Below are positions 17,173 through 18,672 of a DNA stretch of 64,000 nucleotides, in pieces. This DNA comes from Escherichia phage vB_ECOLIGBLB0003. The stretch lies in sequence record PV654517; one strand, 5' to 3'. Each line of letters opens with the position of its first letter. Within the stretch, counting starts at the first letter, position 1. Both the position numbers and the translations under genes were made by a program. The notes beneath the pieces are model-generated. The model did not search any database. It was not told the origin of the DNA and saw only the letters and a list, made by a program, of their open reading frames with translations.

Positions 17173-17460
17173 TTACCATTTATAATAATACATATTTACG
17201 ATGCATTCAAGACCCAAAGGATTCTTGAAAATATCATATTCAAGAGGACCTTTTTCTGTTTCAATAAAGAAATCAAAATTTACTGTATTAAATTTACGTT
17301 CTTCCTTCACTAATTTAACTTGAGAAGATGAACGGTCAATGTAAACCTTTTCAACTTCAAAACATGTTAAAATGCCATAATCATCAATCAAAGCTTTAGC
17401 CGCGTCTTGATCATATTTATATCCATTTTCAATGGATGATACTTTCGCATAAAGAATCAT
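17173..17460 (-). CDS. hypothetical protein (plastic ipI/segB-proximal region)
   Basis: 95-aa ORF with ATG. Confidence 0.5.
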   Translation of the reverse strand: MILYAKVSSIENGYKYDQDAAKALIDDYGILTCFEVEKVYIDRSSSQVKLVKEERKFNTVNFDFFIETEKGPLEYDIFKNPLGLECIVNMYYYKW

Positions 17461-17462
17461 TA

Positions 17463-17861
17463 TCAGCCTTCATCAACAATAGTGTGAGTATTAGCATTTA
17501 CGATTTGCCACCAATCAAAGCGATTAGAATCCATCGGTTTGTTTTCATTTTCTTTGATAATGTCACGGAGTTCATCTTCAGAGAATGCTTTAGCGGTTAA
17601 ATCGGTATACCCACCACGTGGATAATAATTATCACCTGCAAACAAAAGGAAATTTACCTTCCCGGAAGGAACATACGCTTCCTTAGGATACTTGTTTCCT
17701 GCGTGGTCAACCACTTCAATATAACGGTAAGGAATATCGGTTCTTTCAACCCATTGCCATGCCGCCGCAGGGGAATCGAAAGCATCTACACCTAAACGAT
17801 TATCTTCATCTTTAGACGGATTATTTTCGTAATCCGCATATACATAATATTCAACGTTCAT
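17463..17861 (-). CDS. hypothetical protein (plastic region)
   Basis: 132-aa ORF with ATG; 2-nt gap to the next gene. Confidence 0.5.
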   Translation of the reverse strand: MNVEYYVYADYENNPSKDEDNRLGVDAFDSPAAAWQWVERTDIPYRYIEVVDHAGNKYPKEAYVPSGKVNFLLFAGDNYYPRGGYTDLTAKAFSEDELRDIIKENENKPMDSNRFDWWQIVNANTHTIVDEG

Positions 17862-18046
17862 TATTCACCTTTAGAAATTTTATCCATAACAATAGCAATT
17901 AAACCAATTAAAAATGCTACTACAAGTGAAAAAACATTTTCTGCCGTAGTCAATAATCCGCATATAAATCCAACAAACATTGAAAAACTGAAAGCGGAAG
18001 CAGAAATTGCAATAGCAACATTTCGAATTAATTCACAACGTTTCAT
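17861..18046 (-). CDS. small membrane protein
   Basis: 61 aa, almost entirely hydrophobic (single or double TM). Confidence 0.45.
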   Translation of the reverse strand: MKRCELIRNVAIAISASAFSFSMFVGFICGLLTTAENVFSLVVAFLIGLIAIVMDKISKGE

Positions 18047-18065
18047 TTTATTCTCCTCAGTAGTA

Positions 18066-18104
18066 GATAGGGTAATAGTATCACTACCCTATCTAAAAGT
18101 AAAC
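18066..18104 (-). promoter_or_regulatory. PeSL-like early promoter with stem-loop
   Basis: Palindrome GATAGGGTA-atagtatcac-TACCCTATC spanning the -10, GTTTAC -35 on minus strand. Confidence 0.55.
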
Positions 18105-18338
18105 TTATTTTTTACGAAAAATTGATTTATTTTCTGCTGCCCATTTTTCAATAACTGCAGCAGGACCAGTAACAACAATTTTATCACCGTAATCTTCTGC
18201 GGCGAGTTGACCGAAATTATCTAATGCATCACGAAGAACTCCATGAGGCATTTCACCCATTTTATCTTTCTTGCCAGTGTAAATAAACTCAACTTTTACA
18301 TCAGCAGTTTCAGCAATAAATTCTTGGTAAGTTTTCAT
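18105..18338 (-). CDS. internal protein with capsid targeting sequence (IPI-locus)
   Basis: ATG at 18338 gives MKTYQEFIAE..., the canonical internal-protein targeting sequence; position corresponds to the T4 ipI locus. Confidence 0.6.
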   Translation of the reverse strand: MKTYQEFIAETADVKVEFIYTGKKDKMGEMPHGVLRDALDNFGQLAAEDYGDKIVVTGPAAVIEKWAAENKSIFRKK

Positions 18339-18364
18339 TTTGATTTCCATTTGGTTTTGTTTTG

Positions 18365-18402
18365 ATAGGGTAATAGTATCACAACTAAAACCCTATGTAA
18401 AC
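18365..18402 (-). promoter_or_regulatory. PeSL-like early promoter with stem-loop
   Basis: ATAGGGT...ACCCTAT imperfect palindrome plus GTTTAC. Confidence 0.5.
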
Positions 18403-18414
18403 AACTTTGTGAAA

Positions 18415-18672
18415 TTATTTTAAATCTTCTAATCGTTTCTTCATCTTAGAACCATTTTTAGCAATTTCTCCTGCATCGGAGCATAATGCTAAAAGTGCTT
18501 TAACTTTAGTTTGGTCTCCTTTAAAAGATGAAGGATCGACCGCAGCAGCAAGTTCTTTAATACGAGAGAAAAGACGCTCAGCTTCAGCTAAAGCCATTCC
18601 AAGCTTTACTTCCATACCGTGGGAAGATTCAGTGATAGTAGTTTTTGTAGCAAACTCTTTGAAAGTTTTCAT
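18415..18672 (-). CDS. internal-protein-like protein (targeting-sequence-like N-terminus)
   Basis: 85 aa; N-terminus MKTFKEFATKTTITE resembles the targeting sequence; 3' end lies in a 33-bp repeat shared with 57B. Confidence 0.5.
   Translation of the reverse strand: MKTFKEFATKTTITESSHGMEVKLGMALAEAERLFSRIKELAAAVDPSSFKGDQTKVKALLALCSDAGEIAKNGSKMKKRLEDLK

Follow-up and report, generated by a model that had tools for sequence, protein, structure and literature searches.

Positions 17173 to 18672 of a 64,000-nt stretch of Escherichia phage vB_ECOLIGBLB0003 DNA (PV654517; the whole stretch is called the window, and all coordinates are window coordinates) very probably represent the hyperplastic region between gene 57B and the tRNA genes of a T4-like (Tequatrovirus) phage, composed of two cassettes, each a composite early promoter and stem-loop (PeSL) followed by an internal protein (ip) gene, and a PeSL-tRNA.4-tRNA.3-tRNA.2 operon, with the internal proteins (Ips) presumably being injected to counter host restriction enzymes of the GmrSD family. 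The identities of the genes, the PeSL repeats, the capsid-targeting leaders, the polymorphism of the ip slot, and the mosaic structure of tRNA.3 are the demonstrated part of this picture. Publications or sequence deposits already contain the locus itself and its variability, its promoter/stem-loop repeats, the two ip gene names, and the hypothesis of an anti-restriction role; the inter-genus mosaic within tRNA.3 is the sole new detail, not found described elsewhere.

All genes of the locus are present on the minus strand, as seen both in the list of open reading frames (ORFs) and in the raw sequence. Read 5' to 3' on this strand, the order is 57B (Acb1), PeSL-ip5, PeSL-ip6, and PeSL-tRNA.4-tRNA.3-tRNA.2, and then towards the tRNA genes, eight of which are found in the window (15065-16447). 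On the other side, beyond ip5, lie 57B, 57A, and gene 1. The ORF list and the sequence both contain the five small genes (95, 132, 61, 77, and 85 amino acids [aa]) of the preliminary description of this DNA, which had been made from the letters alone. The genes and the elements around them are as follows:

57B, 18746-19204, minus strand: boundary gene 5' of the ip slot and outside its variable part; Acb1 anti-CBASS phosphodiesterase family (Pfam PF23474, E 2.7e-60)
PeSL 1, 18673-18745, minus strand: 57B-ip5 spacer; TTTACA-17-TACTAT promoter with TG (18732 to 18704), 13-bp stem-loop (about 18694-18723), then an AGGA Shine-Dalgarno sequence
ip5, 18415-18672, minus strand: Ip5 precursor, 85 aa, beginning MKTFKEFATK; leader MKTFKEFATKTTITE
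PeSL 2, 18339-18414, minus strand: ip5-ip6 spacer; TTTACA-17-TACTAT promoter (18401 to 18373) with an overlapping stem-loop
ip6, 18105-18338, minus strand: Ip6 precursor, 77 aa; capsid-targeting sequence (CTS) MKTYQEFIAE
PeSL 3, 18047-18104, minus strand: ip6-tRNA.4 spacer; GTTTACT-type early promoter, 14-bp stem-loop (about 18066-18095), then a GAGGAG Shine-Dalgarno sequence
tRNA.4, 17861-18046, minus strand: first gene of the operon, 61 aa; phrog_1692 (E 6e-35); 100% identical to T4
tRNA.3, 17463-17861, minus strand: two-domain protein, 132 aa; phrog_1411 (E 3e-55)
mosaic patch, 17570-17885, minus strand: 5' two-thirds of tRNA.3, delimited by sliding-window DNA identity and per-gene identities
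tRNA.2, 17173-17460, minus strand: last gene of the operon, acidic protein of 95 aa; phrog_2023 (E 2e-47); 94% identical to T4

A megablast search with positions 17090-18760 matched 855 phage records, 205 of them with at least 80% query coverage, and the same ip5-ip6 arrangement is found in 205 records. The best matches, to Tequatrovirus vB_EcoM_G29, WL-3, and fFiEco06, are 99.9% identical over 1671 bp. In GenBank the five genes of fFiEco06 are annotated as Trna.2, Trna.3, Trna.4, ip6, and ip5, followed by 57B. The T4 layout is equal, except that a single gene, ipI, occupies the space between 57B and tRNA.4; the genes, which lie between 57B and the tRNA cluster, do occupy the position of the hypervariable T4 ipI locus, as first proposed. 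Nothing essential distinguishes the window from the known T-even ip slot; the position between 57B and tRNA.4, the N-terminal leader, and the ~70-bp promoter/stem-loop blocks are all equal. The 57B protein, which matches Acb1 over its full length, is 100% identical to that of T4 and 85% identical to that of Dhakavirus JS98. The ip slot directly abuts this proven anti-defence gene.

When compared among 11 phages, the slot between 57B and tRNA.4 varies from 370 to 1415 bp and contains 1-4 ORFs, nearly all of which start with a CTS. Its alleles include ip5-ip6 in the window, ip5-ip9-ip7-ip8 in RB15, ip5 plus an Ip7-like gene in T2, and ipI in T4. The corresponding space in JS98, 648 bp without annotation, holds a 97-aa ORF starting MKTYQEFIKE, a missed ip gene. 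Variability is limited to three places: this slot, the 5' two-thirds of tRNA.3, and a second slot, where tRNA.2 adjoins the tRNA genes. The view of the whole region as a plastic cassette region does not extend to tRNA.2 and tRNA.4, which are 94% and 100% identical to T4, respectively.

Conserved promoter/stem-loop blocks of about 70 bp beside Ip ORFs were reportedly described already by Repoila et al. in 1994. In the window the PeSL is a direct repeat of ~70 nt present three times, 5' of ip5, of ip6, and of tRNA.4. The pattern GTTTAC-N15-TGATACTATTAC has three matches in the 64 kb, all at the ip locus, versus 0.07 expected, and the PeSL subtype with the core GTGATACTATTACC occurs in the window only at this locus. 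Each copy combines TTTACA (twice) or TTTACT (once) with a 17-nt spacer, TACTAT, and a TG, and the stem-loop overlaps the promoter. The predicted hairpins have folding free energies of -17.4, -19.4, and -19.5 kcal/mol and z-scores of -3.56, -3.76, and -4.22 for PeSL 1, 2, and 3, respectively (-3.6 to -4.2 overall), and 0 of 200 shuffled sequences fold as well. The PeSL 3 promoter scores 8/12 in a sigma-70 scan, which is below the level for listing, and fits the consensus published for the PeSLs of PST and T4, TTTACW-N17-TAYWAT (PMC4122927). Like the elements in the window, the published PeSLs combine an early promoter with an overlapping stem-loop and border variable ORFs of a hyperplastic region (Arbiol et al. 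2010, PMC2839356; Comeau et al. 2014, PMC4122927). Of recombination mediated by such elements (mini-circles, shuffling), only the putative sequence footprint, chimeric junctions, is visible in the window. PeSL 1 is identical to the 57B-ipI spacer of T4, while the left half of the T4 ipI-tRNA.4 spacer is the left half of PeSL 2, and its right half is the right half of PeSL 3. These chimeric halves are the footprint expected if cassettes swap by recombination within an invariant core. Among the 11 phages, each ip gene is typically preceded by a single GTTTAC-type promoter, and so is tRNA.4.

Assignment of Ip5 and Ip6 to the internal proteins has three grounds. Both carry a CTS (MKT[YF][QK]EF...) that ends in a gp21 motif (I/L/T-x-E), both genes lie inside the Ip locus between 57B (18746-19204) and tRNA.4 (17861-18046), and both proteins share sequence identity with a named Ip. 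The two targeting sequences first noticed at the N-termini are well matched in T4: residues 1-10 of Ip6 (MKTYQEFIAE) are identical to the CTS of T4 IPII/IPIII, and the Ip5 leader, MKTFKEFATKTTITE, resembles and can be aligned with that of T4 IPI, MKTFKEFTSTTTPVSTITE. Cleavage by gp21 is predicted after Glu15 of Ip5 (ITE15/S) and after Glu10 of Ip6 (IAE10/T). The mature Ip5 would then have 70 aa, an isoelectric point (pI) of 9.2, and, judging from its composition, a mostly helical structure; the mature Ip6 would have 67 aa and a pI of 6.5, and it is predicted to form a compact, ferredoxin-like beta-alpha-beta-beta-alpha-beta domain (predicted local distance difference test [pLDDT] score 81). 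An 81-aa reading of ip6 from an ATG further upstream lacks a Shine-Dalgarno sequence. Ip5 is 100% identical to RB15 Ip5, which was deposited in 1994, and the T2 protein is 98.8% identical to it; at an identity of at least 80%, Ip5 is present in 268 phage records. Ip6 is present in 245, goes by that name in several GenBank entries, and is named ipVI in PST and GiZh. For both proteins many records have alleles that are at least 95% identical.

The relationship to the T4 Ips ends where the mature proteins begin. T4 IPI occupies the same genomic slot behind an identical upstream spacer: this spacer, the ATG, and the first codons are the same DNA at 57B-ip5 as at T4 57B-ipI, and the leader is homologous with a 12-nt indel. 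However, DNA similarity stops directly after the ...ITE codons, and BLASTP similarity between Ip5 and IPI is limited to the leader. Ip5 and Ip6 share with T4 IPI*, Ip2, and Ip3 the capsid-targeting leader, the cleavage motif, and a small size, whereas the mature domains are unrelated in sequence. In Mosigvirus/RB69-like phages (for example, NC_041864 and LN881732), Ip5-like genes with 47.6% identity are neighbours of the lysozyme gene e. Since these relatives are found at the e-side Ip locus of another genus, the Ip5 family moves between the two Ip loci. A third CTS-bearing gene is present in the window at 9786-10259 on the minus strand, which presumably marks this second Ip locus, near the lysozyme gene. 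It encodes a 157-aa protein beginning MKTYQEFITE (phrog_3155, 'internal virion protein'; Pfam DUF7412, E 6e-96), and a late-promoter motif, TATAAATA, lies just upstream of it (10294-10301).

How such proteins might act is suggested by work on T4. For packaging and for processing by gp21, ten residues of the CTS are enough (PMC9026906). All three T4 Ips (Ip1, Ip2, and Ip3) have been found to inhibit one distinct GmrSD variant each (PMC12373910): Ip1 inhibits GmrS/GmrD of strain CT596, Ip3 is required for infection of ECOR17, and Ip2 and Ip3 each block a distinct variant without cross-protection (PMC9391042; PMC12373910). The authors of that last study consider it likely that every accessory protein from the two Ip loci is directed against some variant of this one defence (PMC12373910). 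By analogy with T4 Ip1-3, the most likely role of Ip5 and Ip6 is to be injected and to inhibit particular variants of type IV restriction. The precursors would be made early from the PeSL promoters and late by read-through from a late promoter in gene 1, and their N-terminal CTSs would carry them into the prohead core. There the gp21 protease would trim them after Glu, giving mature proteins of ~7.5 kDa, which would be injected together with the phage DNA. Each protein would then bind and block one specific host nuclease that attacks DNA containing glucosylated hydroxymethylcytosine (glucosyl-hmC), a variant of the GmrSD type IV family, and so widen the host range. The ~70-nt PeSLs and the common leader-coding sequence would provide the homology for gain, loss, and swapping of ip cassettes between co-infecting phages. 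The late promoter in gene 1 is, again by analogy, a plausible source of the read-through transcripts that would supply Ip5 and Ip6 for head assembly. The late-promoter motifs in this part of the window are:

late-promoter motif TATAAATA, 19787-19794, minus strand: inside gene 1; counterpart of the T4 PL1 annotation
late-promoter motif TATAAATA, 17414-17421, minus strand: inside tRNA.2; counterpart of the T4 PL2 annotation

Several points weigh against injected Ip5 and Ip6 as inhibitors of GmrSD-type enzymes. We infer head packaging, gp21 processing, and injection from the CTS alone. In sequence the mature proteins resemble none of IPI*, Ip2, and Ip3, nor does Ip6 do so in its fold, and no experiment or homology ties either of them to a target. 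T2, which has Ip5, is restricted by GmrSD-ECOR21 and GmrSD-ECOR17 (PMC12373910); therefore these two enzymes are not the targets of Ip5. In addition, the PeSL subtype is also found 5' of non-ip genes in other T4-like contigs (IMG/VR, 19-base pattern), and the PeSL stem-loops, in which there is no U-tract, did not score as terminators, so that their role in the RNA is uncertain. On the other hand, T4 Ip1-3 are themselves mutually unrelated, and the GmrSD family is extremely diverse (PMC12373910). Because these three Ips share no similarity with each other, homology neither supports nor contradicts an anti-GmrSD role.

The database searches gave the following. When all five proteins of the locus were scanned against Pfam (in a copy that lacks PF26894), NCBIfam, and PADLOC, no match exceeded the threshold, with sub-threshold noise from DUF5092, IF3_C, DUF7554, TusC, and CARF, and none of the five matched a known anti-phage defence or anti-defence family in these collections. 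PDB sequence searches with four of the five proteins returned nothing meaningful. A structure search with the Ip6 model retrieved generic neighbours only, and IPI* was not among them. The non-ip genes behind the PeSL subtype in the T4-like contigs of IMG/VR encode proteins of 289 aa (MKTITI...), 66 aa (MAKFNT...), and 94-102 aa (MKLQRQ...). A scan of IMG/VR with the 14-mer PeSL core gave chiefly chance single matches among the matches listed, and a terminator scan found no canonical intrinsic terminators in the region.

Two other roles for Ip5 and Ip6 have to be considered. One or both might inhibit another first-line defence, for example, glycosylases acting on hmC DNA, further nucleases of the type IV or modification-dependent kind, or sensors of incoming DNA that are not nucleases. 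This is possible, though doubtful. Consistent with it, T2 is restricted by two GmrSD variants although it has Ip5, the mature domains of Ip5 and Ip6 are unrelated to Ip1-3, and new T-even-specific defences acting on hmC DNA continue to appear (PMC13160076). However, the sole three characterized Ips all hit enzymes of the GmrSD family, and that family is extremely diverse; failure against two of its variants carries little weight. It is considerably less probable that Ip5 and Ip6 are generic, DNA-associated proteins that fill the head, functioning in charge neutralization or ejection, and that their variability reflects weak constraint rather than a specific anti-defence target. Mature Ip5 is basic, a T4 head contains about 1000 molecules of internal protein lying within its DNA (PMC3012670), and neither Ip5 nor Ip6 has a known target or an informative homologue, all of which would suit such a role. 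Yet the near-neutral pI of mature Ip6 fits a DNA counterion poorly, and specific GmrSD targets have been found for all three T4 Ips. Furthermore, the presence/absence and shuffling of well-conserved alleles point to selected, exchangeable functions rather than to drift. Inhibition of specific GmrSD-type variants by the injected Ips is thus the reading that we favor. The suggestion that the ORFs of this locus are anti-defence candidates is reasonable for Ip5 and Ip6 and is already in the literature for both Ip loci (PMC12373910), while it finds no direct support for tRNA.2 and tRNA.4.

The three genes beyond the ip slot had been taken for ORFans. Instead, they are the T4 genes tRNA.2, tRNA.3, and tRNA.4, each with a full-length PHROG match (E 2e-47, 3e-55, and 6e-35, respectively). 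In a tblastn search of 50,697 phage records, tRNA.2 was found in 803, tRNA.3 in 763, and tRNA.4 in 790, including Mosigvirus, Dhakavirus, and phages of Klebsiella, Enterobacter, Erwinia, and Edwardsiella. Three of the five ORFs are thus conserved in reference phages. The T4 genes (ORF4, ORF3, and ORF2 of X03016 for tRNA.2, tRNA.3, and tRNA.4) have the same order, sizes, and coupling as those of the window, and the gene order tRNA.4-tRNA.3-tRNA.2 is kept in T4, JS98, and RB69. The start of tRNA.3 overlaps the stop of tRNA.4 (TAATG), the start of tRNA.2 lies 2 nt past the stop of tRNA.3, and among the three only tRNA.4 has a PeSL, while tRNA.3 and tRNA.2 have neither a PeSL nor a promoter of their own. 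Consequently, the three genes form one translationally coupled operon. The initial idea that each of the five genes follows its own early promoter or stem-loop is therefore right for ip5, ip6, and tRNA.4 (three of the five) and wrong for the coupled tRNA.3 and tRNA.2. The tiny membrane protein mentioned there is the 61-aa tRNA.4, in which hydropathy reveals two hydrophobic (transmembrane) segments. Both tRNA.2 and tRNA.4 are conserved early genes, neither cassettes nor ORFans; a literature search on tRNA.2, tRNA.3, and tRNA.4 found nothing. In many related phages an extra 171-aa ORF (phrog_2290, no Pfam match), absent from both the window and T4, lies between tRNA.2 and tRNA-Gln, which adds another presence/absence site to the region. 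It was considered as a paralogue of tRNA.2, but the BLASTP E value is 0.06 and there is no common Pfam family.

Only tRNA.3 departs from this pattern. Its protein is 64% identical to that of T4 (N-domain 48%, C-domain 81%) and 95% identical to that of JS98, while its neighbours show the reverse (tRNA.4, 100% to T4 and 70% to JS98; tRNA.2, 94% to T4 and 50% to JS98). The difference from T4 is due to an exchanged patch of ~300 bp, 17570-17885, which is 92-100% identical to JS98 and 54-66% identical to T4 and is flanked by DNA that is 94-100% T4-like. At least three allele classes of the N-domain are found among Tequatrovirus. When 20 homologues are aligned, the N-terminal half is variable and the C-terminal half nearly invariant (NFLLFAGDNYYPRGGY...DWWQIV), dividing the protein into a polymorphic N-domain (residues ~1-68) and a conserved C-domain (residues ~70-132; window 17466-17654). 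AlphaFold2 likewise predicts two small alpha/beta domains (pLDDT 86); a fold search with this model gave no informative match. A profile search against 1.84 billion representatives returned 552 clusters at E <= 0.001, most of them stand-alone proteins of 60-100 aa consisting of the C-domain only and one of them fused to an XRE-type helix-turn-helix. As a stand-alone protein of ~65 aa, the C-domain occurs in phages of Staphylococcus, Synechococcus, Erwinia, and Klebsiella, among others, and it carries the precomputed tag PF26894 in the source database. In tRNA.3, a polymorphic N-domain subject to horizontal exchange is joined to a widespread small phage domain. The mosaic hints at diversifying selection; the mechanism is not addressed by it.

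What the operon might do can be framed in three ways, all of them tentative. tRNA.3 could conceivably be a modular host-interaction factor, possibly an anti-defence factor, in which the N-domain, diversifying rapidly and exchanged between genera, would recognize a variable host target and the C-domain would serve as a common effector or oligomerization module. In contrast to the injected Ips, the protein would be synthesized early within the cell, and it would be a further specificity determinant in the locus. This idea is unlikely, although it is the least so of the three. It is improbable that the operon acts on behalf of the neighbouring tRNA genes, for example, in the processing, protection, or expression of the tRNAs, as their conserved co-location and co-transcription might suggest. 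In T4, JS98, and RB69 alike, the ip slot is followed by tRNA.4, tRNA.3, tRNA.2, and the tRNAs, in that order, and in the T4 record an early promoter that precedes tRNA.4 and middle and late promoters that lie within or beyond tRNA.2 are directed into the tRNA genes, with the TATAAATA at 17414 as a counterpart in the window. However, motifs for RNA binding or enzymatic activity are lacking from the tRNA.2-4 ORFs, as are Rfam elements (Rfam finds tRNAs only), and other genes intervene before the tRNAs, the 171-aa ORF in many phages and an HNH gene in this window. The tRNA.3 C-domain also exists alone in Staphylococcus, Synechococcus, and other phages, where no link to tRNA genes is known. Less probable still is the notion that all five genes of the locus are independently swappable cassettes, with the three operon members as ORFan genes for anti-defence or host takeover. 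The allele classes of the tRNA.3 N-domain, one of which has been exchanged with the Dhakavirus lineage, would agree with this, as would the presence nearby of 57B (Acb1) and the ip genes, for which an anti-defence role is either proven or likely. Yet tRNA.2, tRNA.3, and tRNA.4 are found in 763-803 records across genera and in a fixed order, with tRNA.4 and tRNA.2 nearly unchanged from T4 (100% and 94%). None of their products matches a defence or anti-defence family, and tRNA.3 and tRNA.2 have no PeSL or promoter. The idea already fails for both the ORFan status and the separate promoters.

The tRNA side of the region has features of its own. An HNH homing-endonuclease gene (16454-17086, minus strand; phrog_14736, E 6e-124) lies between tRNA-Leu and tRNA.2, in the place occupied by tRNA-Gln in T4 and fFiEco06. 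Of 525 matching phage records, 63 carry this HNH insertion, one of them annotating it as F-TflIV-like, and neither ARAGORN nor Rfam detected a tRNA-Gln in the window. Between tRNA-Arg and tRNA-Tyr there is a GIY-YIG (segB-like) ORF (15145-15918, minus strand). As listed, it overlaps the tRNA-Tyr gene, so its true start is probably an internal Met. At this position fFiEco06 has a tRNA-Asn, which is absent in the window.

The question of which targets the Ip genes have has already been posed in the literature, and the window adds no new element to it. The mosaic and the two-domain architecture of tRNA.3 make it reasonable to include this gene in functional screens as an additional candidate, a modest lead. 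The locus as a whole is a textbook case of the shuffling of phage accessory genes. Ip5 and Ip6 are common, being found in many coliphages that are candidates for therapy and also in Yersinia and Shigella phages; knowing their targets would help to predict host range.

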